Source: Nitrosopumilaceae archaeon
Lineage (GTDB): Archaea; Thermoproteota; Nitrososphaeria; Nitrososphaerales; Nitrosopumilaceae
NCBI GenBank assembly: GCA_965208905.1
Contig: OZ242365.1
Span: 1,248,001-1,312,000, forward strand
Direction: 5' to 3'
DNA length: 64,000 bases
The position numbers and the translations under genes were made by a program. Every line of letters begins with the position of its first letter. Position 1 is the stretch's first letter. Below, one piece after another: positions 3,085 to 37,965 of the stretch. The notes under the pieces were generated by a model that was given only the letters and a program-made list of their open reading frames with translations, had not been told where the DNA came from and did not search any database.

Positions 3085-3234
3085 TGAACTGTCCCATTAA
3101 TGGCGCCTGTCCCAAAGTGGCGCCTAGAGTAGAAACTGGGGTCTGATTGTTTTGTAGATATTTCCTACGTGGAGTGGAAATGAGGTCGAAACAGTGGAGT
3201 GGAAATGATGGTAGGTGACCTGTATTTCCAGTCC
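3085..3234 (+). repeat. Left end L1: 41-bp TIR plus subterminal GGAGTGGAAA module
   Basis: TIR 3085-3125; motifs at 3126 (AGAGTAGAAA), 3171 and 3196; GACCTGTATTTCCA at ~3217. Confidence 0.9.
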
Positions 3235-3651
3235 AGATCTGTCAACCTTAAAACCTACAAAGTTATTTCTATTTTGATGGACAAGGAACCTTCTGATGCG
3301 CAAGTCAGTTGTAATGCCTCCCAGAATAAATGGCCTCCAGTACACAGATACACACCATATGTGATATGTGGTGACGTTTCTCAACCATACTTTAGTTTAG
3401 ACAGAATCATCATATTCGGAGTGACATTCCTCTGACAGAACAGGTCTTCAATACGACGCTTGGAAAAGCTCTAAGACGCGTCATACCAGAATGGAATGCC
3501 AAAAACGTACTTATACAACAGACCAAGACACTACAGGAATCCTCCTAAGGTTTTGGGGATTAGATACATGAGCATACCACCTTGTGGGGCTAGTGCTCAA
3601 TGACTATCCCGTGCACTGTTAATATATGACCACATGTGTCGGTATAACAAC

Positions 3652-3909
3652 ATGGACGTAGATACACTCAAAAGATCCATAAGTCCCAGGTACGGACCCC
3701 TCTACACTATTGGCATTACCAACGATCCGAAAAAGCGTAAGAAGGAACACGAGCAAGACGGTAAGGATACGAAGTATTGGCATGATTGGGCAGTAGACAG
3801 TAAGAGCGTGGCAGAGGCTGTGGAGAAATACTTCATAGGTAAGAAAACGAAGGGTGGTACCGGCGGAAACGTTGATGGCTCCAAGACCGTTTACGTGTAT
3901 ATATTCTGA
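3652..3909 (+). CDS. Small GIY-YIG-like protein, paralog 1
   Basis: YTIGITNDPKKRKKEH...W...AEAVEKYF...GGTGG...VYVYIF; TTAATATA about 26 nt before ATG 3652; T-run after the stop. Confidence 0.7.
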   Translation: MDVDTLKRSISPRYGPLYTIGITNDPKKRKKEHEQDGKDTKYWHDWAVDSKSVAEAVEKYFIGKKTKGGTGGNVDGSKTVYVYIF

Positions 3910-4003
3910 TTTTTTTTGTAGGTGCTTCCATGTGTTTGAGTTGCTAAAACCAATTGATGTTATGTGTTGTCTACTCGATTATATAATTCCCGAAGTTGGT
4001 TGG

Positions 4004-4090
4004 TACTGGTAAGAAACGCTGACCTGTTGTATGGTTGGGAAGGTGCTGACCCGGAGTGGAAACGGGGGTTTTGCACAATCAGGCATGCAG
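4004..4090 (+). repeat. TIR-less internal site (B-arm plus GGAGTGGAAA)
   Basis: CTGGTAAGAAACGCTGACCTGT...TGGGAAGGTGCTGACCC then GGAGTGGAAA (4053) and GCACAATCAGG, matching the other end modules. Confidence 0.75.
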
Positions 4091-4170
4091 AGCTGAAATT
4101 AATTCGCGTGTAATGTATGACCGGATCCGCCCATCAACTGTAGTATGCGGACATCGGTGGTGAGTTAATA

Positions 4171-5406
4171 TTATGTGCTGGCATAATTTTCCGCCCGCTC
4201 CAACGCAAGCTTTACATCCATATCGCTAGGGTCGTGCTTTTCTGCCTTTTTGAGCCACTCTTTGGCATCCTTGTACTGTTTTAGTTTGAAATACTTCATG
4301 CCGACTTCATACGCGGTGTCAACGGTATCCGCCAACTCATGCGCCTTCTTGGAAAATTTAATTGTCATATCAGGGGTAAACCCAAGCTCCTCCAGCCTGC
4401 TGGTGGCCAACCAATATGCATCTGCTGAGTCGGCGCATATCTCAAAGGCCCTATCCACATGCCCCTGATAATCCTTACCTGCTGCTCTGAACCCGTCCAC
4501 TATATCGCACATGATCCGCGCCGCATCCATGCGTAGCCATTTGGCCTCTTTCTTCTTGCTCGTGGGAATTACCTTCACATGCTCCAAGAGGGAGTTTAGT
4601 GCCTGATGTAATACGTCTCCAGCACCTTTGTTACCGATATGTGCCAATGATCTTCCGTAACACATTAGATACTTCCAGTCGGAGTGACCGCGCACTAATC
4701 TCAGACTGCTCACCGCATCCTTATGCCTACCTGCCTCCGAGAGCTCCCGGCCACTGTAAAAAGCATAGTCGTCGCGACCAAGCACAACCTCAAACAGATC
4801 CTTTGCCAATGCGATGCATACTCTTGGGCTGAGATTCGTGTCTTCCAGTGTGTGGGTATGGGTGTGGCGTCGCTCGAACAGATCATCATATTCTTCCACA
4901 TCGATTTTTCTTTCATCAAGTACACGGTTGGTGACATCTAAACTGTTGACCGCCTCCACACTCTGGAAGTTTAGCGCGGATGCTGCAAGGGACTCTATCA
5001 GCATGGGTTGCCGTATATCACATGCTTCGTCAATCAGGGTATTAAGATCCTTGATACTAATAGTAAAACTACCGTCATTGGCAATGTCCTGAACATGTTT
5101 GCGGAGCACCTCATCATGGCGGCGCGTGTTATCCACACACCAACTGTCTGACCAGTCCAACATATCCATCACCAACAGCACATTGAGTATGAGTTCTTGC
5201 GGCATGGGTTCGCCGTCCCCATACATGAATCTCTTTTTTGTCCTGCAAAACTCCTCGATCATAGTACAGACTGCCACCGGAACCTGCTTTTTGAGAACTG
5301 GAGGGAGTCTGTACGCCTCGATATGCTCCTCAAGACGGTGCAGGTGGCTCAACGTCCGCTCATACGTGAGGTGTGAGAAGATAGTGTTTCTGTTTTTGTG
5401 TCGCAT
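4171..5406 (-). CDS. Putative HEPN-domain plus TPR-repeat protein
   Basis: VAVCTMIEEFCR, NFQS and LFERRHTHTH (R-x4-H) in the N-terminal half; TPR-like helices, e.g. AYEVGMKYFKLKQYKDAKEWLKKAEKHDP, in the C-terminal half. Confidence 0.6.
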   Translation of the reverse strand: MRHKNRNTIFSHLTYERTLSHLHRLEEHIEAYRLPPVLKKQVPVAVCTMIEEFCRTKKRFMYGDGEPMPQELILNVLLVMDMLDWSDSWCVDNTRRHDEVLRKHVQDIANDGSFTISIKDLNTLIDEACDIRQPMLIESLAASALNFQSVEAVNSLDVTNRVLDERKIDVEEYDDLFERRHTHTHTLEDTNLSPRVCIALAKDLFEVVLGRDDYAFYSGRELSEAGRHKDAVSSLRLVRGHSDWKYLMCYGRSLAHIGNKGAGDVLHQALNSLLEHVKVIPTSKKKEAKWLRMDAARIMCDIVDGFRAAGKDYQGHVDRAFEICADSADAYWLATSRLEELGFTPDMTIKFSKKAHELADTVDTAYEVGMKYFKLKQYKDAKEWLKKAEKHDPSDMDVKLALERAENYAST

Positions 5407-8360: not shown

Positions 8361-8623
8361 TGAACTGTTCAGTTAACAGCGCCTGTTCAATTATAGCGCC
8401 CGGAGTGGAAACGTCGGTAGTGCACGATCAGGTGTGCGGAGTGGAGATGAGGTCAAAATGGTGGGGTGGAAATGGTGGCCGTATACCTAGGTTTCTAGTC
8501 TAGGGGAGCTGGGAAGATACGGTGACCTGTACAAAAGTGGGAAATGTGTGACCTAGAATCTGGGAAATGTGTGACCTACCTACATTTCCACTCCGCTCAA
8601 TCAACCACCATTTCCACTCCAGG
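8361..8623 (+). repeat. Internal left-end variant L2 with motif module, B-arm and an inverted motif pair
   Basis: TGAACTGTTCAGTTAACAGCGCCTGTTCAATTATAGCGCCC (29/41 to TIR); motifs at 8402, 8438, 8463; B-arm 8506-8554; TTTCCACTCC at 8585 and 8611. Confidence 0.85.
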
Positions 8624-9325: not shown

Positions 9326-10627
9326 TTACTCTCTTTGAGCCTTTGTTGCTACCTCTATGAGGGTCTTCCACTTGTTTGTACCATCTATGATAATACCCGC
9401 GGCTTCAGCTGGAGTTTGACCATCTGCTAGTCCAAGGTGTGGGCGTACACAGTTATGATATATCTTCAAGCCACTTACTATGGGGGAGTCCTCGCGCTTG
9501 AGACCACGCGCTGCCTCCTCGCGATACCTGAGTGTATTACCATTGAATGATTCCATTTGGTTGTTGTGGTGGATGCCGTCAAACGCGACATCGTTTACAT
9601 GTTGGGTTTCTTTGTGTAGGAAGTTCTTGGACTTGTACTGTTTCTCCCATGCGTTGTGAAAGTTGGCCGCACCATCCGATATCAGAGTATCTGGAACTTT
9701 ACCTGCAATCTCCTTTGCATGTGCAAACATGGGCGCGACATCATCATTTCCTTTGTGTTCTGCAACCATCTTTGAAATCCAATACCTTGTACCAGAGTCC
9801 AGCATAGCGAATAGATATCTCTTCCTTCCCTTGACCTTCATGTGTAACTCATCAGTACGCCATGCCTCACTGAGCCGTGGGTGGACTGTATCGATATATG
9901 ACTCCATTAGTTCTGCATACGTAGAGCCCCAGTTCTGTATAGTCCTGTAGGTTATCTTTAGTCCCTTCTGCTTTAGATGGTTTGCCACCTTCCTAGATGA
10001 TAGTCCGGCAAAGTACATTCCTACTGCTGCGCAGACATCATCAGGCGTAGCGCGCTTCCTCTCGAATCCAAGGTTTTGGATGAATCGTTTCCCACATGTC
10101 TTGCATCCATACTGTTGCTTCTTGCCTCGTACACCCTTCTTGATGATGTGTATGGAGTCGCAGAACTTGCATCTGGTATGGTTATGTGGCTGTATTATAC
10201 GTCGTTCCCCATTATGCCACTGTACTGCCTGAATGTGCTTACATGTACTGCCCGTATGCATATGGTCTGGGCATGAACATATCCATCCATTGCCAAAGTC
10301 GCGTACTTCATAGGATTCATCCTTGCTTTGTGATTTCACTAAATAGTGGTCTGATGCGATACGTTCAACCTGTCCGGCGGCTTGATGTATCATCATACCG
10401 CGGTCAGCGCGTGCCTTCATTCCAAGCCGCTCTTCCAGCGCGTATGCGTGCTTACAATATTGTGTATTATCCGGACAGTTACAATCCCAGCCGGCCGTAG
10501 TACGGCATAGTGTATATTGTACATCTGGTGTGGTCTGTGAACAAACCTGATACGTAGACTCATCCATACGATACATCTGATGTTTCTTTTTTGTTATGTT
10601 TATTCCTCGTTGTTTTCTATAATTCAT
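9326..10627 (-). CDS. SWIM-Zn-finger / Zn-ribbon / HTH / IS6-like DDE transposase, copy 1 (433 aa)
   Basis: Start MNYRKQRG set by homology to copy 2 and the shared promoter. SWIM motifs CNCPD..CKH and CSCPDH..CKH; CKFC..CKTC; WRTDE, LISDG, NNQMESFN (DDE triad). Confidence 0.88.
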   Translation of the reverse strand: MNYRKQRGINITKKKHQMYRMDESTYQVCSQTTPDVQYTLCRTTAGWDCNCPDNTQYCKHAYALEERLGMKARADRGMMIHQAAGQVERIASDHYLVKSQSKDESYEVRDFGNGWICSCPDHMHTGSTCKHIQAVQWHNGERRIIQPHNHTRCKFCDSIHIIKKGVRGKKQQYGCKTCGKRFIQNLGFERKRATPDDVCAAVGMYFAGLSSRKVANHLKQKGLKITYRTIQNWGSTYAELMESYIDTVHPRLSEAWRTDELHMKVKGRKRYLFAMLDSGTRYWISKMVAEHKGNDDVAPMFAHAKEIAGKVPDTLISDGAANFHNAWEKQYKSKNFLHKETQHVNDVAFDGIHHNNQMESFNGNTLRYREEAARGLKREDSPIVSGLKIYHNCVRPHLGLADGQTPAEAAGIIIDGTNKWKTLIEVATKAQRE

Positions 10628-11823: not shown

Positions 11824-11965
11824 TGAACTGTCCCATTAATGGCGCCTGTCCCAAAATAGCGCTTGGAGTGGAAGTGGTGGTCCTGTACGATCAGGAGTGT
11901 GGAGTGGAAATGAAGTTTGTTTTAGCGGGGTAGAAATAGCGGTCTTCACACGTTTCCACTCCACT
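11824..11965 (+). repeat. Internal left-end copy L3 with motif module
   Basis: 38/41 to TIR; motifs at 11865, 11901, 11927; inverted TTTCCACTCC at 11953. Confidence 0.9.
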
Positions 11966-12011: not shown

Positions 12012-14530
12012 TTACTTAACCGGGAGCATGTCGATTGCATTCGCGGAAGATCCGTCTGTCAGTCCGGTTTTGTGTTCCTTATCTATTTCATCATCAAACA
12101 CAATCTTAAAGTCGCCCTTCAAGACACCGCCTATTACCTTCAGGTTGCCAGCGTTAAGTGTCTCACCAAGCAATCCCAATACCTTCTCCTTGTATGCAGT
12201 ATCGGGGTTTTCAAGATGCCGTCCCTTGGTTTCGTATATGCGTAATTCTCTCTCATCCTTTCTGCTGAATACGGCAACGAAATCAGGGTATATTTTGTGC
12301 TCCTGCCAGCCGCGCAGATAGTACTCGCCGCGCCCTTTGGCGGCCACCCTGTGCCACCACTCTATTGCTTTGGCATCATCCAGATAGCATGCAAACTGAC
12401 GTTCCGTATTAGTGCCAAAGTCCTCCTTATATACGGGTTCAAACAGACTCCTCTGTACCGGCTTCCCTCTCTTCTTTTCCAATAGACGACCATCATCACG
12501 CAAGGCCTTATACTCGCCCCTCATTTCGAATACACCCATTGGTGCATGCATGTCAAACCGGATGGTCTTACTTTTTAGTTTTGCTTTGAACACTCCCTCG
12601 GCCTTCTCAATGACTTGGGTCTTCAAACCTTCAAGCAGCATATCCTGCAACTCTGCTTCATTTGAGAGAATCTCACCCTCGGACATTCCGGTATCGTTCC
12701 AGAACGACTGTACTATCCTTGCAGCCTGCCATGCGTTGGGAACCAAATCATCGACTATTGATACCCATTCGGCCAGATTTGGTCTATCTGGAATAACACC
12801 ATCTTCATGTACATAGTCCCATCCACCATCTACCGTACCGATTTTGACTGTGTCTGATATAGGTTTTGAATTCCCCCCAACGGTATCCACCTGAACTGTT
12901 ATGTCGTTCCAGTCTATACTGTGCAGTATGTGCTTGTCATAGTCAATATCAATCCATTTTTTACTGTCCTTATGAAGTACTGTTGGAAGGCGTATCTTCA
13001 GTTTTTCAAATTTGGAACGTCGTTTGTTGATTGGCCTGTCCGCTTCCTGCCCACTGTTGGTGTGACGTATTGGTACTTCTGTAAGACCCTCATTATCGAG
13101 TTGTTTCTGTATCCACTCGATCAGTTTTTTGATGTCATCATACATACAAGTCACATAACAACTGTCCAGAGACTCATTACCAGTAAATTCCGTGTACGGT
13201 TGGCGCAATATGCGGCCAAGCAGTTGCGTAAGAGATGTCGGACTCTTTATGTTGTCCAGAATCACCAACATGTATGCGAACGGACAGTCCCAACCCTCCT
13301 TGAGTGCATCTTTGGTTATTATGTACTGTATTACTGTGTCACAACTCATCAAATCTTTGTCACGTAGGTCGTCATCTTCCGATGTCTTTATCGCAACCTG
13401 TTCTGGCGGTATGCCAAGTTCGCGTATGAGATAGTCTTTTACGTCATAAGCGTGTATGTTTGCACCGTCATGCTGTTTCTCACTGGTACGTTCCACACGT
13501 ATTACCATTATAGGCCTGATGTATCGGTACCCCCGAGCTGCAACATCCAATTTTCGTAGTTTGACAACCGACTGCCTGAGCGTACCCTGCCAGTTTAAGT
13601 TGCTGGTTGTCACCTGAATCTGTTTCTTGATCATTGCTTCGTTTTGCAGATCCATCCCGCTGACTACACACAGTATGTTGCTCTTCTCTAGATTCGGCGT
13701 TGCAGACAATTCAATTACCAGTCTTGGTCCCAATCTGTTGACTTGTTCCGCCCACTTGCCAAAGTTTCTAGCGGATGCCTTGTGTGATTCATCTAGTATT
13801 ATTACAGGTTGTATGATACGGAGTACGTTCATCAGACTTTTGCGCGGTATGTCTGTACCATTGATCATGTCCAGCCCTGGATTGTCCCTCTTTAATTTGG
13901 AGATCTTGTCATTCTCATCGGCATCCGGAAAGAACTCACATACATTCTCATTGTCGCGGGTCATTCTTAAAAAATCATTACTAATCCGATTGGTAGCCTG
14001 TAGCGTCAAGGGCATTATACAGAGGTTGTCGCGCAGCACGTTCTTCGCAATTCTATCATCCTTTGTCACTATCTCCACCCTATTACCACTGATAATGTCA
14101 AGCAGTTGTCGTATCGGATGTGTCTTGTCCTTGAGTATGGTTATAGTCTGTTCTTTTATGGTCGTACTAGGTACCATCCACAGTACCAAACCCCGGCTGC
14201 TTCCAATCCTTTTCAGTATGGCGGCGGCCATTCTGGTCTTGCCACCACCGGTCGGGACCTGTATGCACACATGTGGTATAGGCCTACCACCCGGGCCCTT
14301 GCGGTCATGCCATTCTATAGGGGCATTTCCATGAAAATCTCGCCACACACGGGCTAAATTGATTTCTGAGTCATTGCGCATGTGTTTAATCTGATCTTCA
14401 TCAACCCAATCTGTTCCATTTTATGGATAGTGGCTTTTCTATCAGCGACCTGCTTATATTCTTCCTTCAACATGCTGTACCATCGCTCAAACTCTTCAAC
14501 TACCTCTAGTTGATACTCCTTGAGCGGCAT
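12012..14530 (-). pseudogene. res: Type III restriction subunit Res 1, with a 1-nt frameshift near the 5' end
   Basis: QVPTGGGKT, DESH, EGWDCP, PDF..YETKG. ATG 14530 overlaps the mod stop (MPLKEYQLEV...) but is out of frame with 12012..14381; one extra A in the run at 14419-14422 fuses them. Confidence 0.75.
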
Positions 14531-16305: not shown

Positions 16306-16419
16306 AGAGGTAGTCTCCCGGCATGTCTAATACACTCCTCTGCGCGGATGGCCCCTTTTCGAAACCATGAAATTGTGGTGGAGATCCATTGGATCGATGG
16401 CCCCAGACTTGTAGATCTA

Positions 16420-16472
16420 GCGTAGCGACCACATCGTCGCGTAGCGACCACATCGTCGCGTAGCGACCACAT
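16420..16472 (-). repeat. 19-bp tandem repeat (~2.8 copies) upstream of mod 1
   Basis: Top-strand unit GCGTAGCGACCACATCGTC. Confidence 0.9.
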
Positions 16473-16827
16473 ACACACGCTACGATCAGACAGCATACTG
16501 TATGATTTACTATTCATCGAATAGGACATCTGAAGTGTGTGGACACCACAATTCTTCATACAGAAGTATCGTAAGTGGTGTCGTATAAACATTGAACATC
16601 TCAGTTCACCTAGAGTTGGACCATCAAGATATGTGGGGGTGAGTCTGTGTGCCAAAAAGAACAACAACTCCGGGTCAGCAATTATACAGTCTCGGTAGGT
16701 CAGCAGGATCATACAGCCATTCTTGAGAAGATCCGTAGGTGACGCGTGTTACACTATACAACAGGTGACGTAGATGTTACAGCCCCTTCATCTCAACACA
16801 CCTTTATAAAACAATTTATTCAAAACA

Positions 16828-23480: not shown

Positions 23481-23598
23481 GTTGAACTGGGAATATACGT
23501 CAAGCCGGTGTCGGGTCACTTTTTGTCGAAGTCAACTCCTGACACCACCAGAGTTTCAATTCAGAAGTTTTATTAAACCCACTACCTTATTATACATA

Positions 23599-27495: not shown

Positions 27496-27647
27496 GGAAC
27501 CTGTCTTACGGAGAACTATTTAACTTCTTGCGTGCACAGGTTCTGGGAAATCTGCGTGTGATGGGTGAGCCTGGGAAATGCGTGTGATGAGGTCAAGAGT
27601 GGATCTCCTCAAGAACGTTCGTTGACCGACTGGGGAGCTGTCAAAAG

Positions 27648-27715
27648 GAGCTGGGAAGAAATGCTGACCTGTAGAAAAGTGGAAAAGATCTGACCTAGAG
27701 TGGAAACGTAGGTTA
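27648..27715 (+). repeat. TIR-less internal site (B-arm plus motif)
   Basis: GAGCTGGGAAGAAATGCTGACCTGTAGAAAAGTGGAAAAGATCTGACCT then AGAGTGGAAACGTAGGT. Confidence 0.75.
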
Positions 27716-27804
27716 CACCAAGCCGGTCAGAGTAGGCATAGTGAAGCGGTCCCGCGTGAGGGACGGATGTCGTCAAAGTGGATGGTACATAATGAGATGA
27801 GCAG

Positions 27805-29124
27805 CTACGGGGAGTTGTCTGCCGGTACCAGAAATCCAGATTCCCAAGAAACACCATCATCCTCATAATTCTTTGAAAATATCACAATGGGTATATCATC
27901 ATTAGGTCGTTCCTCCCGTATCTTGACTTGCTCTTTTTTTATCGCCGCGCGTTGGTCTGCCTTGGTTGAGTTGTGGTTGACGATGACGGTTATCCAGATT
28001 GTGTTTGCTCTCAGGCGGTATTCTGTACTGCGACCGGTTGTTTGCAACCAGCGGAAGGCTCCCCAGGCATCCCCCTCAAATGCAGTAGCCTCTTCCTCTG
28101 ATAGATCCGCAAGAGCTTCAAATATTTTTTTGGACGTCAGGATATTGGTCACTGTCTCCGCCCGGGTGTCGGCCACTTGATTCTCGATGACATCAACCAG
28201 TTCGACTACAGATGGTGGCATACCGGCCATCCTTTGCCTGTATCTCGAAATCATCTGGCCCATCTCAATTTGGATGGAGTCTGATTCAAGAACCCTCTTG
28301 CGGTCCTTTTGGACTGCTTTTTGAAACCTTCTCTCCCGTGCCGGTGAGGGCCGGAGTGAATATGGAAATGTAATCTCAACACGACTCTGTAGGAGCCCCC
28401 AGAAGTCGCCGTCGTCGATTGTGTGCGGACTTGCAATAGCCCCGCTCTTGTTGATACGCGTTCCCGTCCAGCCCTTCAGGACATGGGGGTGAACGGTTGT
28501 GACGAAAACCATGTCTGCAAGCTTGGCATATGTGTATATTCTAGTGTTGCTAGTGACCATCGTACCATCGGTGGCGCGACGCATGTACCAGTTGGTCTTT
28601 TCATGTATGCCGTCTGTAATATCCATACTTCCCAAGATGAGAAGGTGGCTCTCATAGGGATGTACGGCCTGCCTATTATCCAACAAGAACTCCCGCCATG
28701 TTGCTTCCGCCGACTCTATCTGCGGACCAAATTTAGGGTGGTTTGATTTGAATGCTTCATATTCCATCCTCAAGACTCTCCAACCCAGTGATATGGCAAA
28801 CCGCTCCAACCAACTGCCGTATTCAAGGCGGCTGTTACTGCCATTGTGGAATGGATAGAATATCTTGTCCGCGAATAATGTCTCAAGACTGGAAAATCGT
28901 TGCTCACAACTACTACACAGCATACGATATCTAAGAAGATCCTGAGCATGTTCTGCATTGTTACCGTCAACTCGTGCAAGGGTTTTGGTCGCGGATGTGT
29001 CCTTAAGCCACTTGCCTACGAATTTGGGTATTATGTGGCTTGCCTGAAGATCGCCGCTGCGTCCGCACAGAGCACATGTTTCGATGCTACGGTCCTGTGC
29101 ATCCTTGGAGATCACGTCTACCAA
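27805..29124 (-). CDS. HNH-like Zn-binding domain protein
   Basis: CALC...SHIIPKF...LCSSCEQRFS N-terminal pattern. Confidence 0.65.
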   Translation of the reverse strand: MVDVISKDAQDRSIETCALCGRSGDLQASHIIPKFVGKWLKDTSATKTLARVDGNNAEHAQDLLRYRMLCSSCEQRFSSLETLFADKIFYPFHNGSNSRLEYGSWLERFAISLGWRVLRMEYEAFKSNHPKFGPQIESAEATWREFLLDNRQAVHPYESHLLILGSMDITDGIHEKTNWYMRRATDGTMVTSNTRIYTYAKLADMVFVTTVHPHVLKGWTGTRINKSGAIASPHTIDDGDFWGLLQSRVEITFPYSLRPSPARERRFQKAVQKDRKRVLESDSIQIEMGQMISRYRQRMAGMPPSVVELVDVIENQVADTRAETVTNILTSKKIFEALADLSEEEATAFEGDAWGAFRWLQTTGRSTEYRLRANTIWITVIVNHNSTKADQRAAIKKEQVKIREERPNDDIPIVIFSKNYEDDGVSWESGFLVPADNSP

Positions 29125-29160
29125 TGGCCTTCACCACTTATATTATACGCGGTTAGGTGG

Positions 29161-29295
29161 GAGTGGGAAAACACGGTGACCTCGTGAAATTTGTGACCCG
29201 GAGTGGAAATGGAGGTTTGCAGAATGTACTGCGTGGAGTGGAAATGAGGTCTAGTATGATGAAGTGGAAATACAGTAGATGACCTATGTTTCCGG
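29161..29295 (+). repeat. TIR-less internal site with full three-motif module
   Basis: Short B-arm ending TGACCC; motifs at 29200, 29235, 29261; GACCTATGTTTCC follows. Confidence 0.85.
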
Positions 29296-29327
29296 TCCGC
29301 AGACAGTCCGGATGGATGCCCTGGCCG

Positions 29328-30449
29328 TTAATTACAGTCGGGCAAGAGACTGTTGTCCTCTTGCAGGAATTTGAAGGCCGCACTCAACGAGGCCCGTACC
29401 GCGCCTATATTGTCCGGCTCAAATCGCTGTTTCACCAACACGATTCCATTGCCGGCAGTCTGGAGGGTCTGGCCGTCAACCTCCACTGTTTCAATATTGG
29501 CATCGAACACGCGTTTTATATCGGCCGCGGGTTCTAGCGAAACCGAGATCAGCGCCATTCCGTCTTCCATCCTGTCTTTGATGATTTTCACCATCTCTTT
29601 GTCTCTATATGAGAACCCGATCACCAACAACACGTCAACCTTCTCAATCTTCTCCTCAAAGCGTTTCCACAAAGTAGAGAACGGCTCCCTGCCATAATCC
29701 TTCGCGCCCTCGGTGGGGGCTACCATAACATCCTTCTTGTTATCCCTTGCCGCAACCATTGTACCCTCCACGATGTCCCCGTCAACATTCTCATGCCAGA
29801 ATATGGAGCCGTGTAGTTTTATCAGGTGCATGTAGTTGTCCGCGTCGGTTGACCACTCGTCTCTCCAGACAAAAACCCCGCGGCCTTCCTGTCTGAAACC
29901 ATTGACTACAACAAGATCCTTCTTGTCGCAGTATTCCTCCATCACACGATCATAGTTAGTCGTAAACACCAGAAATTCACCCATCCCACCATCACCAATA
30001 ACCGACCAAACCATGTCGTACATCTGCCTAATCGAGTTACGGGAATCCGATTTGATAATGAATGATTCAAGCAGGACATCGCGGATGACGAGGTGGACAC
30101 GCCTCAAGGCATTGATTGTGTTCGTTAATAGACCATTTGCATTCATCACCAGAAAGACCGGCCTGATGTTGGACACATCGTCACGCAGGTGCAACATCCG
30201 CTCTATCCCATCGTATAATTTCTCAACATCTTTGTAGTGGTCGTGGTTAATGATGGTTTCTGTAATGCTATCCAGATTGTATGCATCTTTACCCGTATTT
30301 TTGACACGCGCCCGTACCTCGTCCATCAACTCCGTGGTGGTAGGCAGGTCCACAAACGCCGAAGCCCCGGCTCCCAGAAAAAGGGCGGTGCGCATATGCG
30401 GCATGTGGTGCAGACCATAATAAACCATTCTGCCGCATGGATCTGTCAA
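29328..30449 (-). CDS. SIR2-like (SIR2_2) protein
   Basis: LFLGAGAS, FTTNYD, LIKLHGSI, LLVIGFSYRD; the true start is probably near MRTALF. Confidence 0.88.
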   Translation of the reverse strand: MTDPCGRMVYYGLHHMPHMRTALFLGAGASAFVDLPTTTELMDEVRARVKNTGKDAYNLDSITETIINHDHYKDVEKLYDGIERMLHLRDDVSNIRPVFLVMNANGLLTNTINALRRVHLVIRDVLLESFIIKSDSRNSIRQMYDMVWSVIGDGGMGEFLVFTTNYDRVMEEYCDKKDLVVVNGFRQEGRGVFVWRDEWSTDADNYMHLIKLHGSIFWHENVDGDIVEGTMVAARDNKKDVMVAPTEGAKDYGREPFSTLWKRFEEKIEKVDVLLVIGFSYRDKEMVKIIKDRMEDGMALISVSLEPAADIKRVFDANIETVEVDGQTLQTAGNGIVLVKQRFEPDNIGAVRASLSAAFKFLQEDNSLLPDCN

Positions 30450-30482
30450 AAACCAGAGTCCTATACAACGCTGTCAAAAAAG

Positions 30483-30525
30483 TGACTTGGGGTGGAAATG
30501 GTGGTTGTATACCTACGTTTCCAGC
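30483..30525 (+). repeat. Partial internal site
   Basis: TGACTT-GGGGTGGAAATGGTGGTTGTATACCTACGTTTCCA, close to 8463-8497. Confidence 0.75.
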
Positions 30526-30937: not shown

Positions 30938-33337
30938 TTGGGTAGACGGCGCACCAAACAATCGGGTAGTGGTCCAGTTGGTGAATACAAGCACGAGAAA
31001 TTCAAGCGTAAGAACACCCCACCTGCCGGGCTGGTCAAAGGAGAGAAAGACGTAGAATCCTACAAATCATACTATCCTGAAATCGATCCGCATGACTCAC
31101 CATTTCTGATGTTCAAGAACAGGCACGAGTCTGACCAAATTAATGTCCAGACGGTCTCACTACACACACATGAATCAATACACCCACCCACAATAGTAGA
31201 ACCGATTCTCAAAGGGCGGCAACACGTACTGGATGACTTTTTTGAGATAACGCGACCACGCAACGAGGCCGTTGAGTTTTACAAGCATAATGATGACTGG
31301 ACCAACCGCCTAATTGCCGGTGACAATCTACTGGTAATGAACTCGTTATTGGAAAAGGAGAATAAGGCTGGCCAGGTAAAGATGATATACTTTGACCCAC
31401 CATATGGTATCAAGTTTAACAGCAACTTTCAACCCAAAGTTTTTGATACAAGTGTAAGAGACCGTGTAGATTCCATAGAGGAGCGACCAGAGAGTATCAA
31501 AGCATTCCGTGACACATGGATGTTAGGCGTTCACTCATATCTATCTGCAACACGAAAGCGATTGGAGTTGGCACGGCGCCTATTGTCTGATACAGGCTCT
31601 ATATTCGTACAGATATCTAATACAAATCAACACTTCATGAGAGTACTGCTTGATGAAATATTTGGTCCTGAGAATCTTGTGTGGCAGATTTTGTTTAGGA
31701 CGAAGGGTGGCGCAGGTGTTGGTGCTTGGCCTCATGCATACGACTACATATTATGGTACGCCAAGGACAAAAAGCAAGCCATTGAATCTGGACATTTACA
31801 CCAATTATGGGAAGATCGTACAGATGAGAGTATTAAAAAAACATTTGGAGGTATGGAGTTAAAGGATGGGACAGTAAAATCGCATGGTGGAAAAGTGTTA
31901 CCACCGGGAGCCAGATATTGTAAAATTATGCCTCTGCACTCACAGGGAGAATCGACAACAGATAGATCAAAACCACACACATTCCCAAATAATGAGACAG
32001 TATCCATACCAAGCGGTAGACAGTGGATAGTGGGTCATGACGAATTGGATGTTTTATATCATAAAAAACGAATACGTTTCACAGAGAAAAGAGCAGATTG
32101 GATATACTATCCAGAAGATGCTCCAAGAATAATAACAAATGTCTGGGAAGGGATGCAAATAAATCAGAAAAACTATGTGATTGAAACAAAAGACAAGGTA
32201 CTGGAACGGTGCATACAACTAACCACGGATGTGGGTGATTTAGTACTAGACATTACCGGTGGAAGTGGCGTGACCGCATATGCTGCCGAAAAGTGGGGCA
32301 GGCGTTGGATAACATGTGATGTATCACGTGTGTCTATTGCAACCATAAAATGGCGCCTACAAACTGCTTCATTTCTCTGGTATAAACTGACCAATGATGT
32401 CGAAGGTGTGGATAGTGGTTTTGAATACGAGACGTTCTTCAAACGATCCGCAAAGACTCTATCAAACACTGAAGATTTGGATGAGAGCATTCGGTATGAC
32501 AAACCCAAGATAGTAAAGGAGAGGAGTCGCGTAACAGGACCATTTACAATAGATGCCATACCGGCACCCACAATATCAAACGATACCGTCAAGACTTCTG
32601 TACGAAGCGACTGGTTAACAAAACTGGCTGACTCTGGTATTGTGACAAATACCGGACAGCGACTGGTGTTTGATAGAGTAGAGCGAAACACGGATGTAAA
32701 GTCCCCAATACACGCCTCTGCATTTACGGGAAAGAAAAAGACTGCCATCTCCTTTGGGTCGGAACATGGGCCCATGAGTGTGTATCAAGTGGAGTCTGTC
32801 TTGAACGATGTTAGTACTGATGCTATCTTTATTGCATTTGTCTTTGATCCACACGCACAGTCTCTTATAGGCAATACAGAGAATGCATTTGCCGTTAGCA
32901 TGAACAACGACATATTGATTGAGGATCTTAAATCCAAATCCACTGACCAACCATTTAGCATCATCGGTGAGCCAGACATTAAAATCCGCCACAACAACGA
33001 CAAATTCACAGTAGAGTTGTTGGGCTATAATTACTACGACCCACATAAAGGGAAGAACATAGTCGGCAACACACAGAATGTGGCAATGTGGATGCTGGAT
33101 ACTGATTATGACGGAAGAACATTACGAGTTAAGCAGTTCTTCTTTCCAAATAAACAAGATGCGTGGAAAGATCTAGAAAAAACACTGCGCAGTAGTGTAA
33201 ATACCGAACTGTTGGAAAAGTATCTTGGCACAGAATCTATCCCATTTGAAAGTGGAAATTATAAAAAAATTGCCATCAAGGTGATTGATATGGATGGTAA
33301 CGAGTCTATGAAGGTGGAAGGATTAGAAGAATGGTAA
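30938..33337 (+). CDS. mod: Type III modification methyltransferase Mod 2
   Basis: WTNRLIAGDNL, IYFDPPYGIKF, AFRDTW, DITGGSGVTA..AEKWGRRWI, WMLDTDYDG. Confidence 0.9.
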   Translation: MGRRRTKQSGSGPVGEYKHEKFKRKNTPPAGLVKGEKDVESYKSYYPEIDPHDSPFLMFKNRHESDQINVQTVSLHTHESIHPPTIVEPILKGRQHVLDDFFEITRPRNEAVEFYKHNDDWTNRLIAGDNLLVMNSLLEKENKAGQVKMIYFDPPYGIKFNSNFQPKVFDTSVRDRVDSIEERPESIKAFRDTWMLGVHSYLSATRKRLELARRLLSDTGSIFVQISNTNQHFMRVLLDEIFGPENLVWQILFRTKGGAGVGAWPHAYDYILWYAKDKKQAIESGHLHQLWEDRTDESIKKTFGGMELKDGTVKSHGGKVLPPGARYCKIMPLHSQGESTTDRSKPHTFPNNETVSIPSGRQWIVGHDELDVLYHKKRIRFTEKRADWIYYPEDAPRIITNVWEGMQINQKNYVIETKDKVLERCIQLTTDVGDLVLDITGGSGVTAYAAEKWGRRWITCDVSRVSIATIKWRLQTASFLWYKLTNDVEGVDSGFEYETFFKRSAKTLSNTEDLDESIRYDKPKIVKERSRVTGPFTIDAIPAPTISNDTVKTSVRSDWLTKLADSGIVTNTGQRLVFDRVERNTDVKSPIHASAFTGKKKTAISFGSEHGPMSVYQVESVLNDVSTDAIFIAFVFDPHAQSLIGNTENAFAVSMNNDILIEDLKSKSTDQPFSIIGEPDIKIRHNNDKFTVELLGYNYYDPHKGKNIVGNTQNVAMWMLDTDYDGRTLRVKQFFFPNKQDAWKDLEKTLRSSVNTELLEKYLGTESIPFESGNYKKIAIKVIDMDGNESMKVEGLEEW

Positions 33338-36075
33338 AAGGTATAGACAAGCTCATAATCTGCAACCCATATGAAAAGCCCAACCAATACTACAAGTACG
33401 ACTCGGAACTTGACGGTTATCACAAGATGACTGGGAGGCGTCCATCCGGATACCAAAGCATGAATGAAAATGGTGTATATGGCATACATAGGGAAATACA
33501 CACTGTCAATAAAATACGAAAACTTGTTGATGAGTGGCGGGATGCTGGTTATCCAGATACTACCAAAACCACCAAAAAACTACTAAATCACTGGAAAAGC
33601 AAGAAAGAGATGAGATTGTTTTTCTGCCAGATGGAGGCTATAGAGACCATCATATATGCAATGGAACATCGAGATAAAGTCAACAAAATAATACAGGGGG
33701 ATGATGGTCCATTCAGCCGTTATTGTACCAAGATGGCTACCGGTACTGGCAAGACAATCATAATGGGGCTGTTGATTGCATGGCAGGTTCTAAACTCCGG
33801 TTCAAGATACACAAAAAATATTCTGGTTGTAACCCCCAACCTAACAGTCAAGGATAGACTACAAGTACTACATCCTGGCAATCCCAAGAACATCTATGAT
33901 GAGTTTGACATGATGCCACCGGGAATGAAGCGTGAAATGTTGGGCAGTGCCCGCATCACTATAACCAATTTTCAGCAGTTTAAACCAAAAGAGGGAAGTA
34001 AGAACAGTGTAGTAAAACTTGGTAGACAAGGTGCAAAGTCATTTGCCGCATCCATTGTAGGTAGGCAGACGAAAAACATTCTGGTCATAAATGATGAGGG
34101 GCATCATGCGTGGAGACCATCATTTTATTCTAATGCAGATAAAAAAGAGGGTAAAGAGGCGGGAATGTGGACAAACGGTCTGGACCTCATACACGGTATT
34201 TGTAAAATCACCCAGTGTTGTGATTTTTCAGCCACACCATTCGTTCCAACCGGTAAGAGTGCTACAGAAGACACTTTGTTTGGGTGGATTATATCAGACT
34301 TTTCACTTAGTGATGCAATAGAGTCGGGCCTTGTCAAGACTCCTAAAACACCTAAAACCGGTGATAGTTTTTACCGCCTGTATGATGAAGATGTTGCAAA
34401 AGCCCTTGGCTCAACAAAGATGGATAGACTGCCAGACAAGGTTGAAAGAGCATACAGCCTTCTTGGTAAAGGATGGGAGAAAGTTAACAAGTTATGGAGA
34501 GAAAACAGGCGGCCCACACCACCTGCCATGATTACTGTTTGTAACAACACACGTCATGCCAAACGCATAGCAGATAATCTTGAGCGAAACACGGTTGGAC
34601 TGAATACAGATCTTGTCAAGTCTGAATCCCTTCTACATATTGATTCAACAACCATAGAAGATGATACAAGTATGCGGGACAAAGTAGCTACAGTTGGAAA
34701 AAGTGGCGAGTCGGGTGAAAAAATCTGCAATATTGTATCTGTTGATATGCTGACTGAGGGATGGGACGCGAGAACAGTCACCCATATTATGGGACTTCGG
34801 GCCTTCAAATCACAACTTCTATGCGAGCAGGTGATTGGCAGAGGTCTGCGCCGCACCAGTTACGATGTAAATGAAGACGGATATTTTGAAACGGAGCATG
34901 TTGACATATTAGGTGTTCCCTTTGCCGGCATATTGTCAGAAGAGGCAGAACAACTTGGAGGAGGGACGACAGTAATACCGGTGGATATTTATCCAGACAA
35001 GCCGGAACATATTATCGCGTGGCCCATCATAACGGAGATCCGCGAGACCGTTACGTATAAGACTGAAATAGACTGGGAAAAAATCACACCACTTGACTTT
35101 GACAAAACAATACCTTCGTCAGTGTCACTAGGCCCTCTTATTGATGGATGGGTTTCCAAAGACAGTGTGACCTTTGAACTCAAAAACCGAAAGCAGACGG
35201 TCATGTATGGTATTTTGCAGAGTATAATGAGTAACTACCACCAGCTCGAAAGGGAGCAGATAATTGCAGAGTATAGTCCATATGTCAATAATCCACAGGG
35301 GCTGACTATATCCATACTTTACAACATCAAAGAGTATGTGAGAAGATTCATTGATATGAAATTTCCAGACAGATCTGAACAGGTATTGTTTGACCACCGC
35401 GATGATGTTGCGCGACATATTTACAAAAATCTCGTAACTGCTGAGCCACTAACAAAGCCCAAAGTAGAAGTCGATGGTACAGATAACACAGACATACCGC
35501 GTAGGGCGACTACGAATCAAAGGCGCTTTGCTCCAAAAAAGACGCATCTTAACTTAATTACCGCGGCCAGAGATTTTGAGATACGTATAGGTAAGATGCT
35601 TGACAAGGATCAGCATGTACATTCTTGGATCAAGTCGGATATGGTGAGATTTTCCATACAATACGAGCATCCCGACGGTTCAAGACGCAACTATCTGCCA
35701 GACTTTATTGCACATTTGAATACTGGTGTTCAACTAGTCATAGAAGGTAAGGGCAAAGAAGATGATGTTGATATTGCCAAGAAAAAAGCATTAAGACGAT
35801 GGGTAGATGCAGTTAATCAAGATGGGAGGTATGGTGTATGGGATTCTACTACACTATATTCAGACAAGGATCTCCAAGCCAGCCTAACAGATGCCATACA
35901 GGCTTCATCGGATAGGCCATATACAGTAGTATGTGAGAGGTGTGGTTTCACCGCTAGCACGCTTGCCGAATCAGTTGGTGTATTTGGTGTTGAGAATAAC
36001 AGGGGAATACTCAAGGTATCTACACTATGCGTTGACTGTCAAAAGGTGATTAAAAACACATCAAGCAACAACTAG
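33331..36075 (+). CDS. res: Type III restriction subunit Res 2
   Basis: FFCQMEAIET, KMATGTGKT, NDEGHH, LTEGWD, EQVIGRGLRR, YLPDF..IEGKG; overlaps the mod 2 stop. Confidence 0.9.
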   Translation: MVKGIDKLIICNPYEKPNQYYKYDSELDGYHKMTGRRPSGYQSMNENGVYGIHREIHTVNKIRKLVDEWRDAGYPDTTKTTKKLLNHWKSKKEMRLFFCQMEAIETIIYAMEHRDKVNKIIQGDDGPFSRYCTKMATGTGKTIIMGLLIAWQVLNSGSRYTKNILVVTPNLTVKDRLQVLHPGNPKNIYDEFDMMPPGMKREMLGSARITITNFQQFKPKEGSKNSVVKLGRQGAKSFAASIVGRQTKNILVINDEGHHAWRPSFYSNADKKEGKEAGMWTNGLDLIHGICKITQCCDFSATPFVPTGKSATEDTLFGWIISDFSLSDAIESGLVKTPKTPKTGDSFYRLYDEDVAKALGSTKMDRLPDKVERAYSLLGKGWEKVNKLWRENRRPTPPAMITVCNNTRHAKRIADNLERNTVGLNTDLVKSESLLHIDSTTIEDDTSMRDKVATVGKSGESGEKICNIVSVDMLTEGWDARTVTHIMGLRAFKSQLLCEQVIGRGLRRTSYDVNEDGYFETEHVDILGVPFAGILSEEAEQLGGGTTVIPVDIYPDKPEHIIAWPIITEIRETVTYKTEIDWEKITPLDFDKTIPSSVSLGPLIDGWVSKDSVTFELKNRKQTVMYGILQSIMSNYHQLEREQIIAEYSPYVNNPQGLTISILYNIKEYVRRFIDMKFPDRSEQVLFDHRDDVARHIYKNLVTAEPLTKPKVEVDGTDNTDIPRRATTNQRRFAPKKTHLNLITAARDFEIRIGKMLDKDQHVHSWIKSDMVRFSIQYEHPDGSRRNYLPDFIAHLNTGVQLVIEGKGKEDDVDIAKKKALRRWVDAVNQDGRYGVWDSTTLYSDKDLQASLTDAIQASSDRPYTVVCERCGFTASTLAESVGVFGVENNRGILKVSTLCVDCQKVIKNTSSNN

Positions 36076-36291
36076 ACATAACACTAACAACATAGGTAAA
36101 AAAGTATCTGCAACACAGTTACCTTCTCCCAAAACACTTGAGAAGTGATAATAGTTCAACTAGTTTCCTTCTAGATGAACATCATCCCTGAGCGACAACT
36201 TCGTACTGACAATGACTGACATAACGAAGAGAAATGTGAGAACACCAAATGTTACCACATTTCCCACATTTTTCTAGGTTGCTGTAACTTT

Positions 36292-36327
36292 CCAGTGCCT
36301 CCCAGTGCCTCCCAGTGCCTCCCAGTG
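36292..36327. repeat. 10-bp tandem repeat (CCAGTGCCTC, ~3.6 copies)
   Basis: Seen directly, about 180 bp upstream of transposase copy 2. Confidence 0.85.
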
Positions 36328-36469
36328 TGTATGTTTATGCTTAGGATACTGAATTTCCCAGAAAACCACATGAATGGGAACTTCAATTGAAAATCTTGAT
36401 CAAATACAGAGGCAAAATTAAGAGGGTTTAGTCATGAAGGGCACATTCCCTCCAGTCATACCGTAAATC

Positions 36470-36504
36470 ACCACCTTAAATAGTGCCGATACGTTACCAC
36501 ACAA
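36470..36504 (+). promoter_or_regulatory. Promoter of transposase copy 2
   Basis: TTAAATA at 36476-36482, ATG at 36505; conserved with copy 1. Confidence 0.75.
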
Positions 36505-37806
36505 ATGAATTACAGAAAACAGAGAGGCATATTGATAACAAAACAAAAGAATCAGATTCGTCAAGTAGATGATTCTACATACGAGGTGTGTTCACAGACT
36601 GAACCTGGCATCAAGTATACGTTGACACGTACATCCCGTAGTTGGGATTGTAACTGTCCTGATGATGCGATATATTGCAAGCATGCGTATGCTCTGGAAG
36701 AACACCTTGGCATGAAACCACGCGTAGACAGGGGCCGTTTAATACACGAGATGGGAGGTCAGGTGGAGTGCATATCACTAGACCACTATCTAGTCAAATC
36801 ACAGAGTATTGATGAATCATACGAAGTACGTGATTTTGGTAGTGGTTGGATATGTTCATGTCCAGACCACATACATACAGGGAGTACATGCAAACACATT
36901 CAAGCCGTACAGTGGAGCAATAGAGAACGGCGTGTAATAGAAGAACCAAGGCAGATTTTATGTCTGCGCTGCGGTTCATCCGACATTATACAGAAGGGGG
37001 TGCGCAGCGGCAATCACCGGTTCCAATGCAAATCATGCGGCAAATACTTTACAGACAATCTTGGATTTGAGGGGCGGCGTTCCGCCCCAGAGTACATTAC
37101 AGTCGCTGTAGAACTGGTGTATGCGGGACTGTCCATACGAAAAACCGTAAAGGCACTACACTCAATATACTGCAAGGTTGGCCGCTCTACCATACATCGC
37201 TGGGCAGACCAGTACGGCCATATGATGGATGAATATCTTGATGGGATAACTCCACTGGTGGGGGAGGAGTGGCGTACCGACGAAATATACGTAAAGATAC
37301 GCGGGAAGCGAAAGTACCTGTTCGCGATGCTGGATTCAGAGACAAGATATTGGATTGCCAGACAGGTTGCCACACACAAAGGTACTGATGATGTACGACC
37401 GATGTTTAAGCAGGCCAAAGACATAACAGGTAAAATTCCATCCAAACTGATATCTGATGGTGCATCCAACTTTGCCGAGGCTCACAAAGATGAGTACGCT
37501 CCCAAGAACTACCTGTGGAAGAGTTCCGTGCATGAGTCACACATACGCATGGATGGCGATATACACAACAACCAGATGGAGTCTTTCAATGGAAATACCA
37601 TACGGCTGCGCGAGAAGATTGTACGCGGTTTGAAGAAGGAGGATGCGGCACTGCTTGCAGGTTTGAAGGTGTATCATAACCATGTAAGGCCACATCTGGG
37701 ACTGCCTGACGGACAGACTCCAGGCGAGGCATCAGGTATACATGTTGATGGTGTAAACAAGATACTCACGATTATACGCGCTGCTGCCAAGGCGCGTAAC
37801 AACTAG
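36505..37806 (+). CDS. SWIM-Zn-finger / Zn-ribbon / HTH / IS6-like DDE transposase, copy 2 (433 aa)
   Basis: Same architecture as copy 1: WRTDE, LISDG, NNQMESFN; ends 118 bp before the right TIR. Confidence 0.9.
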   Translation: MNYRKQRGILITKQKNQIRQVDDSTYEVCSQTEPGIKYTLTRTSRSWDCNCPDDAIYCKHAYALEEHLGMKPRVDRGRLIHEMGGQVECISLDHYLVKSQSIDESYEVRDFGSGWICSCPDHIHTGSTCKHIQAVQWSNRERRVIEEPRQILCLRCGSSDIIQKGVRSGNHRFQCKSCGKYFTDNLGFEGRRSAPEYITVAVELVYAGLSIRKTVKALHSIYCKVGRSTIHRWADQYGHMMDEYLDGITPLVGEEWRTDEIYVKIRGKRKYLFAMLDSETRYWIARQVATHKGTDDVRPMFKQAKDITGKIPSKLISDGASNFAEAHKDEYAPKNYLWKSSVHESHIRMDGDIHNNQMESFNGNTIRLREKIVRGLKKEDAALLAGLKVYHNHVRPHLGLPDGQTPGEASGIHVDGVNKILTIIRAAAKARNN

Positions 37807-37830
37807 CTTTTTCATTTTTTATTCATTCGG
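37807..37830 (+). terminator. Oligo-T terminator of transposase copy 2
   Basis: CTTTTTCATTTTTT right after the stop; copy 1 has CTTTTCATTTTTT. Confidence 0.6.
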
Positions 37831-37850
37831 TATCTGGGCCTTTTATGCCT

Positions 37851-37965
37851 GGAGTAGAAACGTAGGTTGTCTTGGCGGAGTGGAAATATGGGTCTGGAGT
37901 GGAAACGTAGGTCAGGCAGATGTCAGGCGCCACTTTGGGACAGGCGCCATTAATGGGACAGTTCA
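37851..37965 (-). repeat. Right end: three motifs plus 41-bp TIR
   Basis: GGAGT(A/G)GAAA at 37851, 37877, 37896 (top strand); TIR 37925-37965. Confidence 0.92.

Follow-up and report, generated by a model that had tools for sequence, protein, structure and literature searches.

A cargo-bearing transposon related to IS6, with multi-site ends similar to those of Tn7 and Mu, in a Nitrosopumilaceae genome

Organization of the island and its repeated motif

The DNA analyzed here, hereafter the window, is a 64-kb stretch of the genome of a Nitrosopumilaceae archaeon (GCA_965208905.1, contig OZ242365.1, positions 1,248,001 to 1,312,000); the whole source genome (2.21 Mb, 99.6% complete) is referred to as G000. 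Positions 3085-37965 of the window, the island, harbor two transposase genes, two type III restriction-modification (R-M) systems, a SIR2-like defence gene and further cargo, interspersed with arrays of a short repeated motif (Table 1). An original prediction, made from the sequence of this stretch, had interpreted the arrays as delimiters of single-gene cassettes in an integron-like layout without a tyrosine integrase. The present analysis revealed that the island is a single transposon. The arrays are very probably protein-binding sites inside the termini of an IS6-related family of DDE transposons of Nitrosopumilaceae, the island being one such element and its internal modules being related left ends.

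With at most one mismatch allowed, the motif GGAGTGGAAA has 30 matches in the window, against 3.40 +/- 1.91 (maximum 9) in shuffled controls, and none of the 100 shuffles attained 30. All but two of these matches (28/30) fall within 3171-37905, and the island accounts for all 21 clustered sites of the window. The motif is the core of a longer 18-bp site, designated B (GGAGTGGAAAYRnnGGTC), whose consensus, GGAGTGGAAA[T/C][G/A]nnGGT[C], was derived from 84 clustered sites genome-wide. Same-strand spacings between these 84 sites peak at 18-19 (n = 10), 25-26 (n = 16), 35-37 (n = 7) and 45 bp (n = 3), and the modules with fixed spacing described in the original prediction are thus real. The four triplets that it listed (beginning at 8402, 11865, 22156 and 29200) were confirmed, as were its partial copies (4053, 23425, 27697, 30489) and the three near the right end; the copy at 11927 has two mismatches. 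Newly recognized features are a fifth triplet at the left edge of the island (3126/3171/3196), minus-strand copies at 8585, 8611 and 11953, and a second site type, b (sTGGGAArN4-6GTGACC). Most triplets are closed by an inverted trailing copy beginning with GACCTAnnTTTC (3216-3235, 8485-8503, 11945-11962, 22238-22255 and 29283-29299). The modules are nearly all intergenic, as had been claimed, except that the one at 22115 truncates a gene. A scan against Rfam returned a tRNA at 42025-42098 as its sole match, the modules thus corresponding to no known RNA or CRISPR repeat.

Table 1. Features of the island and its borders (window coordinates; B, a and b denote the site types defined in the text)
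Feature	Position	Strand	Details
Left 8-bp target-site duplication	3077..3084		GATACGTC; single copy at the empty site of G005
Outer left end, L-A	3085..3235	+	41-bp repeat 3085-3125 with two a-sites; B at 3126, 3171, 3196; inverted B 3216-3235
Truncated left end, b type (L-b)	4002..4099	+	GGTACTGGTAAGAAACGCTGACC, second b site, B at 4053, degenerate B at 4089
Full left end, variant repeat L-A'	8361..8503	+	Repeat TGAACTGTTCAGTTAACAGCGCC...; B at 8402, 8438, 8463; inverted B 8485-8503
Right end, b type (R-b), of inverted inner element	8507..8620	-	B at 8611-8620 and 8585-8594; three inverted b sites to ~8507
Inner transposase gene	9326..10627	-	433 residues from conserved MNYRKQRG start; SWIM-SWIM-zinc ribbon-HTH-DDE
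Full left end, L-A	11824..11962	+	Repeat 93% complementary to right arm; B at 11865, 11901, 11927; inverted B 11953-11962
Type III R-M system and 136-residue ORF	12012..16712	-	Res 12012-14381, Mod 14530-16305; REase_III 2.1e-131, MTase_III 2.1e-138
Captured chromosome-like genes	16828..22114		Cyclophilin-thioredoxin fusion, matrixin/cupredoxin protein, truncated surface-protein gene 21779-22114
Full left end, L-A	22115..22255	+	Repeat 95% complementary to right arm; B at 22156, 22192, 22217; inverted B 22238-22255
Diverged, truncated left end, A-like	23384..23490	+	B at 23425
Truncated left end, b type	27647..27714	+	GGAGCTGGGAAGAAATGCTGACC, second b site, B at 27697
439-residue cargo protein	27805..29124	-	No Pfam family; language-model neighbours named HNH endonucleases, scores 0.93-0.94 (lead only)
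Full left end, b type	29160..29300	+	Two b sites; B at 29200, 29235, 29261; inverted B 29283-29299
SIR2-like defence protein	29328..30449	-	PF13289 2.2e-10; PADLOC SIR2 4e-25
Truncated left end, b' type	30440..30524	+	CTGTCAAAAA... sites, B at 30489, inverted B
Second type III R-M system	30938..36075	+	Mod 30938-33337, Res 33331-36075
Right-end remnant, b type	36256..36295	+	Inverted b sites ending ...CTTTCCAGTGCC
Outer transposase gene	36505..37806	+	433 residues; SWIM 49-60 and 117-131; IS1/IS1595-type zinc ribbon 153-184; IS6-type DDE core 188-394
Outer right end, R-A	37851..37965	+	B at 37851, 37877, 37896 (26 and 19 bp); inverted 41-bp repeat 37925-37965
Right 8-bp target-site duplication	37966..37973		GATACGTC; G005 empty site

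Boundaries and terminal architecture of the transposon

The borders of the island are marked by a perfect inverted repeat (3083-3125 and 37925-37967, 43/43 positions complementary), overlooked in the original prediction, which comprises a 41-bp terminal inverted repeat and two chance bases of a target-site duplication. In the sister genome G005, the closest available, the site is empty and both flanks are joined through one GATACGTC, with identities of 97.3% for the left flank and 96% over 2,633 bp for the right flank. Since identical copies of GATACGTC stand outside the 41-bp repeats and the site is empty in G005, 3085-37965 is a single transposon of 34,881 bp, inserted as one unit with an 8-bp duplication. 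In contigs of other samples, similarity ends exactly at 37965 or begins exactly at 37966. The left ends found in the interior of the island are not accompanied by GATACGTC, and the last jump therefore used 3085 and 37965. The insertion lies just upstream of a Spondin_N gene (1559-3115, minus strand), whose promoter it may affect; the listed TTG start of this gene falls inside the terminal repeat of the transposon, so that the true start must lie further in.

Both ends of the element are composite, 115-150 bp long, and contain three to four subterminal sites at fixed spacing. A left end consists of a terminal module, three B sites arranged as B-36(45)-B-25-B and a single inverted B, which forms a palindrome with the third B, while a right end runs B-26-B-19-B followed by an inverted terminal module. 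B keeps the same orientation at both ends and is consequently opposite relative to the two termini. Terminal modules are of two types. Type A has a 41-bp inverted repeat with two tandem a-sites (TGTCCCAn3-4TGGCGCC), and a ~41-bp unit A (TGAACTGTCCCATTAATGGCGCCTGTCCCAAAGTGGCGCCT) precedes full modules of this type; type b has two or three sTGGGAAr...GTGACC sites. The b variants carry either GGRRCTGGGAAGAn4GGTGACC with one or two further sites or the CTGTCAAAAA form. The tips read GGAACTGGG or GGGACTGGG in b-type and TGAACTGTCCCA in A-type ends, GRRCTG near the tip is common to all termini, and the repeats measure 23-41 bp, with further site arrays behind them. The A variants differ between elements in the 4-nt core of the a-site (TCCC, TTCA, TAAA, GCAC, TAAC), which is usually identical in both tandem a-sites of one end (G000, L020, L139 and L141). 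Such an element-specific core suggests a specificity code, possibly read by the variable helix-turn-helix (HTH) region of the transposase.

Transposases and their relation to the B sites

The transposase combines two SWIM modules, a zinc ribbon, an HTH and a DDE core, and matches PF13610 (DDE_Tnp_IS240; 48.4 bits, cut-off 27) and the SWIM family (29.4 bits, cut-off 19.6). The IS6 model NF033587 is matched over positions 1-201 of 202 at 92.5 bits, against an equivalog cut-off of 125, and the IS1/IS1595 zinc domain is matched as well; relatives are named 'IS1/IS6 family transposase' in the source databases. Two CxC..CxH motifs are present, and the two SWIM modules are paralogous, with an alignment score of 68 versus 24.3 +/- 4.4 for shuffles. 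The inner transposase is 59% identical to the outer one and 79% identical to the transposase of a second, 8,983-bp element of G000. The transposases are mosaic: the outer gene shares 90% identity in SWIM1 with the gene of the 8,983-bp element, and its DDE core is most similar (80%) to that of a third long transposase gene, which points to domain shuffling between family members.

In total, G000 encodes four double-SWIM transposases and nine near-full-length single-SWIM relatives. B arrays accompany all four double-SWIM genes, the first B lying 45-706 bp downstream of the stop codon, versus none of the nine single-SWIM relatives (within 4 kb), in line with the proposal that the modules belong with a SWIM-finger transposase; a 3.6-kb single-SWIM element has b-like terminal repeats and no B. 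Identity between the four long transposases is 68-91% in the SWIM regions, the best-conserved part of the protein, and 37-46% in the zinc-ribbon/HTH regions, where only the two enzymes with b-type right ends in common reach 76%. A conserved SWIM domain is thus paired with an invariant B site, and a variable zinc ribbon/HTH with variable termini. Because of this co-occurrence and conservation, the SWIM fingers would be the readers of the invariant B sites, and recognition of the variable termini would fall to the zinc-ribbon/HTH region, by analogy with IS26, in which the HTH of Tnp26 recognizes the terminal repeats. The earlier suggestion of protein-binding or recombination sites for cassette capture would accordingly be retained as far as binding sites linked to mobility are concerned; its cassette-capture part fails, the modules being transposon ends.

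The same arrays could also be regulatory or architectural, for example operators, road-blocks shielding the element from transcription that enters from outside, or sites for a host nucleoid protein, with a transposase that needs the terminal repeats alone. The palindrome formed by the third B and the inverted B is operator-like, the shared polarity of B at both ends is odd for transposase sites, and single-SWIM relatives move on terminal sites only, two identical 3.6-kb copies being present. This explanation is nevertheless very unlikely: gene-less miniature elements, in which there is nothing to regulate, retain three to four B sites at the same spacings, B is invariant while the terminal modules are freely swapped, and B arrays are confined to the clade of double-SWIM transposases.

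The family in G000 and in other assemblies

Genome-wide, the 84 B sites form 29 clusters of at least two sites, all of which were read and follow a consistent grammar. They include gene-less miniature elements of ~200-300 bp composed of a left terminal module, three to four B sites and an inverted right terminal module, with the terminus combinations A/A, b/b, b/A and A/b all occurring; such miniatures keep their three to four B sites at the same spacings in G000 and in four other assemblies. A second complete element, of 8,983 bp, was identified at G000 1100770-1109752. Its two b-type ends agree in 22 out of 23 positions, it is flanked by an 8-bp duplication (ACCATATC), the corresponding site is empty and uninterrupted in genome G002, and it also contains one co-oriented internal L-A module. 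Matching A' ends were found around a 14.7-kb region (G000 1695226-1709895), and another Nitrosopumilaceae assembly, L020, carries two left ends in the same orientation, near 3000 and 3880, together with one right end (12145-12290).

The pattern GGAGTGGAAAN{8,9}GGAGTGGAAA gave 34 hits in 596 Gb of genomes. The six thaumarchaeal-type loci examined among them all share the same grammar and B core, a seventh hit is the L020 contig, and the other 27, in bacterial contigs, are motif counts only. A double-SWIM N-terminus was present in three of the 151 family genomes searched, all of one genus, and ~45 double-SWIM homologues were seen only in ENA/Logan assemblies. Scans of genome contigs returned two loci with a single-protein query and 56 with an alignment query, the latter mostly single-SWIM and devoid of B arrays, and a scan of metagenome contigs with the N-terminal SWIM alignment matched 585 stretches, among which no relative was confirmed.

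Single-SWIM relatives are also mobile in G000, where two identical 3,602-bp transposons, each with ~2.2 kb of cargo, lie at 1851328-1854929 and 1337692-1341293. The two copies hold halves of two different 8-bp duplications, each copy being flanked by GTCCGTTG at one end and AAAATAAC at the opposite end, and a 351-bp extra left-end fragment lies beside copy 2. The AAAATAAC flanks are contiguous in G005, on a separate 88.7-kb contig (C2). This arrangement looks like the product of a cointegrate or of copy-to-copy recombination, which would have rearranged ~510 kb. It is a hint, no more, of the movement through cointegrates (copy-in or targeted conservative) to which IS6/IS26 elements are restricted.

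Internal modules of the island

Apart from the outer left end, the island contains eight further left-type modules, all on the plus strand like the outer one, which derive from the left ends of related elements, some complete and others truncated, and are mutually 68-95% alike. Internal right ends are scarce, being represented by two remnants. The left end at 8361..8503 is 89% identical to a left end at G000 1695225-1695364 and adjoins, with a gap of ~3 bp, the R-b end at 8507..8620, whose architecture is that of the R-b end of the verified 8,983-bp element (G000 1100770-1100895). DNA upstream of 11824 resembles G000 1623888-1624623, the similarity ending at 11817, 7 bp before the repeat. The b' sites of the module at 30440..30524 recur at G000 1773528 and 1703773. 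The ORF (open reading frame) at 21779-22198 encodes the N-terminal ~135 residues of a protein homologous to one of 1,627 residues in G000; this match breaks off at the terminal repeat (22115), and nothing further of the gene is found in the window. As judged from this match, the module at 22115 is an insertion junction that cuts the upstream gene after ~135 codons. For a candidate nested element at 30440-36295, no matching 8-bp flanks were found. Directly behind the right-end remnant, at 36296-36325, three tandem 10-bp copies (TCCCAGTGCC, TCCCAGTGCC and TCCCAGTGTG) repeat its tip.

Ends of different elements are often abutted, as at 8503/8507 in the window and at G000 1658139-1658300, where a right end is followed after ~8 bp by a left end; in another sample (run X6) the right-end tip 37965 is joined to the left-end tip 22118. 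Abutment of this kind suggests insertion beside resident ends, or tandem or dimer forms.

The original prediction rightly took the modules as boundaries between separately acquired cargo blocks. Only two of the ~9 blocks (27647-29159 and 29160-30439) contain a lone gene bounded by modules, as single-gene cassettes would; the others hold 0 to 8 ORFs. Like an integron, the island has repeated sites between blocks of accessory genes, many of them for defence, and a true integron-like system would require an unrecognized site-specific recombinase that captures single-gene cassettes at the modules. PF00589 (Phage_integrase) has no match in the whole of G000, not even of the Xer type (control positive in 14 of 14 reference genomes), and PF00239 has none in the whole of G000 either (control positive in 12 of 14), so that the absence of visible tyrosine and serine recombinases, already noted for the window, holds for the genome. 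Among the 30 ORFs covered by the Pfam, NCBIfam and PADLOC scans, there was no IntI and no unexplained recombinase candidate beside the array. In integrons, each promoterless cassette is followed by attC, an imperfect palindrome, and the cassettes share one orientation. Here, in place of folded, hairpin-type attC structures, the modules are arrays of direct 18-bp sites that bear transposon terminal repeats, the blocks are mostly multi-gene with genes on both strands, the module at 22115 interrupts a gene, and the whole region, with its 8-bp duplication and empty site, moved as one DDE transposon. An integron-like mechanism is therefore extremely improbable. With no integrase, no attC, multi-gene blocks, a gene-cutting site and transposon junctions, the integron-like layout was rejected for practical purposes.

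Origin of the internal left ends

If the island is a member of a family of transposons with B-bearing termini, its interior can be explained by a history of repeated acquisition. Related elements would have become trapped by nested insertion, inside or beside one another; alternatively or additionally, a more distal left end may have been used together with the shared right end, capturing the intervening DNA and with it genes of the chromosome. Right ends and transposase genes that had become redundant would have been lost afterwards, and the modules would now separate cargo blocks of different arrival times, including the two type III R-M systems and the SIR2, DUF3800, HNH-like and chromosomal genes.

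A different role for the left ends was weighed against this history. They could be recombination sites for an IS26-like targeted conservative reaction, with strand exchange between the left ends of two molecules adding circles of 'module + adjacent cargo' beside a resident module; the outcome would be an array of co-oriented modules separated by cargo, with few right ends. The IS26 family is described as reacting at one end and building clusters with directly oriented copies (PMC7885326), and the catalytic core of the island transposases is IS6-like. The eight internal left modules all share the orientation of the outer one, and the same holds for those of L020 and of the 8,983-bp element; right ends are rare in the interior, and ends frequently abut (8503/8507; G000 1658200-1658290; 37965 to 22118 in X6). 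An X6 contig over the SIR2 block 29186-30500 has both of its similarity ends inside modules, although short Logan contigs break at repeats, so that these boundaries are weak. The IS26 reaction is, however, described as requiring identical DNA at the reacting ends (PMC7885326), whereas the modules are 68-95% alike, their terminal types differ (A, A', b and b'), the HTH region of the transposase varying accordingly, most of them are truncated, and the one at 22115 is an insertion junction within a gene. On balance, an exchange of this type is unlikely, and the co-oriented left ends have a correspondingly small chance of being working sites that collect and shuffle module-plus-cargo units and not mere debris. 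Contigs of the source sample (X1) contained no joint between internal modules; rare forms are invisible to contigs, so this result was not counted as evidence.

Several observations weigh against the explanation preferred here, in which the B arrays are transposase-binding sites and the internal modules are trapped left ends. The internal modules are co-oriented in eight of eight cases in the window, in one of one in the 8,983-bp element and in one of one in L020, versus none of one in the unverified 14.7-kb region, and the eight of eight in the window are not predicted by simple random nesting. The scarcity of internal right ends means that a nesting history would need repeated right-end loss, and both this scarcity and the uniform orientation would be explained by survivorship arguments only. 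The polarity of B, shared by both ends, is unlike that of Tn7 and Mu and is unexplained. The assignment of the SWIM fingers to B derives from co-occurrence within one clade and from patterns of conservation. The NCBIfam IS6 score lies below the equivalog cut-off. Finally, six miniature elements, whose flanks were inspected by eye only, revealed no 8-bp duplication, and the 14.7-kb region has no duplication and has flanks lacking orthologues in G005, G008 and G002.

Comparison with known systems and significance

The ends of Tn7 and Mu contain several copies of the transposase site, are unlike on the left and right, and have sites arranged relative to each terminus. The ends described here resemble them in bearing multiple sites, spread on the left (36 and 25 bp) and compact on the right (26 and 19 bp), which gives polarity. 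They differ in that no large rve transposase of the TnsB/MuA type and no AAA+ partner occurs among the 30 scanned ORFs, the duplication is 8 bp and not 5 bp, and B has the same absolute orientation at both ends. MULE transposases have a catalytic core of the MULE/IS256 type, with SWIM on its C-terminal side. The island transposases share with them a SWIM CxCxnCxH zinc finger in a DDE enzyme and long complex ends; here, however, SWIM is N-terminal (49-60 and 117-131), the core is IS6-like, and no MULE family was matched. The island element is thus not Tn7-like, Mu-like or a MULE. Compound and nested bacterial transposons, tIS and MITE/MIC elements offer a further parallel in their cargo between functional ends, nested relatives and miniatures presumably mobilised in trans; the present family differs in its thaumarchaeal host and in that only left ends accumulate, all co-oriented.

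IS6/IS26 elements are resembled in the DDE core, which matches IS6 models (PF13610 above its cut-off, NF033587 over its full length but below the equivalog cut-off), in the HTH upstream of the core, and in the existence of miniature derivatives. An 8-bp target duplication is the rule in the family as described in the IS6 review (PMC7986276), and 8-bp duplications occur here at three or four sites (GATACGTC and ACCATATC; AAAATAAC and GTCCGTTG for the 3.6-kb relative). According to the same description, IS6 ends have GG tips and a cTGTt motif (PMC7986276); the termini here begin with GG or TG and contain CTGT. Members are given there as ~0.7-1.8 kb long with 15-20-bp terminal repeats, just one carrying a passenger gene (PMC7986276), whereas the elements described here are 3.6-35 kb long (34,881, 8,983 and 3,602 bp) and cargo-bearing, have composite ends of 115-150 bp with interchangeable terminal modules, and encode transposases in which an IS1-type zinc ribbon is combined with either one SWIM finger or two. 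Because its size, cargo, long composite ends and additional N-terminal domains depart from the family description, the island element is not a regular IS6 member; it is a cargo-carrying, IS6-related archaeal transposon with multi-site ends of the Tn7/Mu kind.

In the text of a survey of the thaumarchaeal mobilome, transposons are represented only by IS-like elements of one or two genes (PMC6563490), and Krupovic et al. (2019) name integrons and passenger-carrying DNA transposons there among the classes of elements 'not detected in archaea, including thaumarchaea' (PMC6563490). No description of the present family was found in full-text literature searches; the supplementary insertion-sequence tables of that survey (PMC6563490) may list such transposases under IS6 or IS1. 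Two elements, of 35 and 9 kb, are proven by target duplication and empty site. With their defence cargo, which includes two type III R-M systems and SIR2, they represent a concrete means by which defence islands can move between genomes of ammonia-oxidising archaea. The combination of an invariant subterminal array, swappable terminal modules and a duplicated SWIM is absent from the family description in the IS6 review (PMC7986276) and offers a clean system for studying how added DNA-binding modules alter the recognition of transposon ends. If the IS26-like exchange considered above were true, the island would be a DDE-driven gene-cassette platform, a counterpart of the integron in a lineage without tyrosine recombinases.

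Cargo of the island and its occurrence elsewhere

In addition to the cargo listed in Table 1, the island encodes a DUF3800 protein and several unknown proteins, with cargo genes on both strands. The chromosome-like genes of 16828..22114 have paralogues at 72-91% identity elsewhere in G000. Within this block lies an IS3-type insertion sequence (19297-20551; rve, rve_3 and HTH_21) with 13 other copies in G000 at 99.7-100% identity, and judging from these copies the IS3-type element is very active and landed recently in the island.

DNA ~94% similar to the R-M region 30808-36165 is present in run X5, which comes from another sample. In run X6, a 1,457-bp contig matches the SIR2 block 29186-30500 at ~96%, the edges of similarity lying inside modules. 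In runs X5-X7, which come from other studies (sponge metagenomes or coded organisms), the flanks of the cargo differ or the site is apparently empty, with joints that lie at repeated modules, extend over 21-50 letters on their short sides and are indistinguishable from unrelated miniature elements. Cargo shared with five congeneric genomes was too diverged or absent, and block breakpoints could therefore not be mapped. A second SIR2 locus, at G000 2127-2131 kb, is heavily decayed and uninformative. Outside the island, in the core region, two perfect 32-bp direct repeats (TAGGGCTTTAAAACAGTACCAAGTAACAGGCC) whose starts are 34 bp apart occupy 60190-60255, upstream of a gene at 60291.

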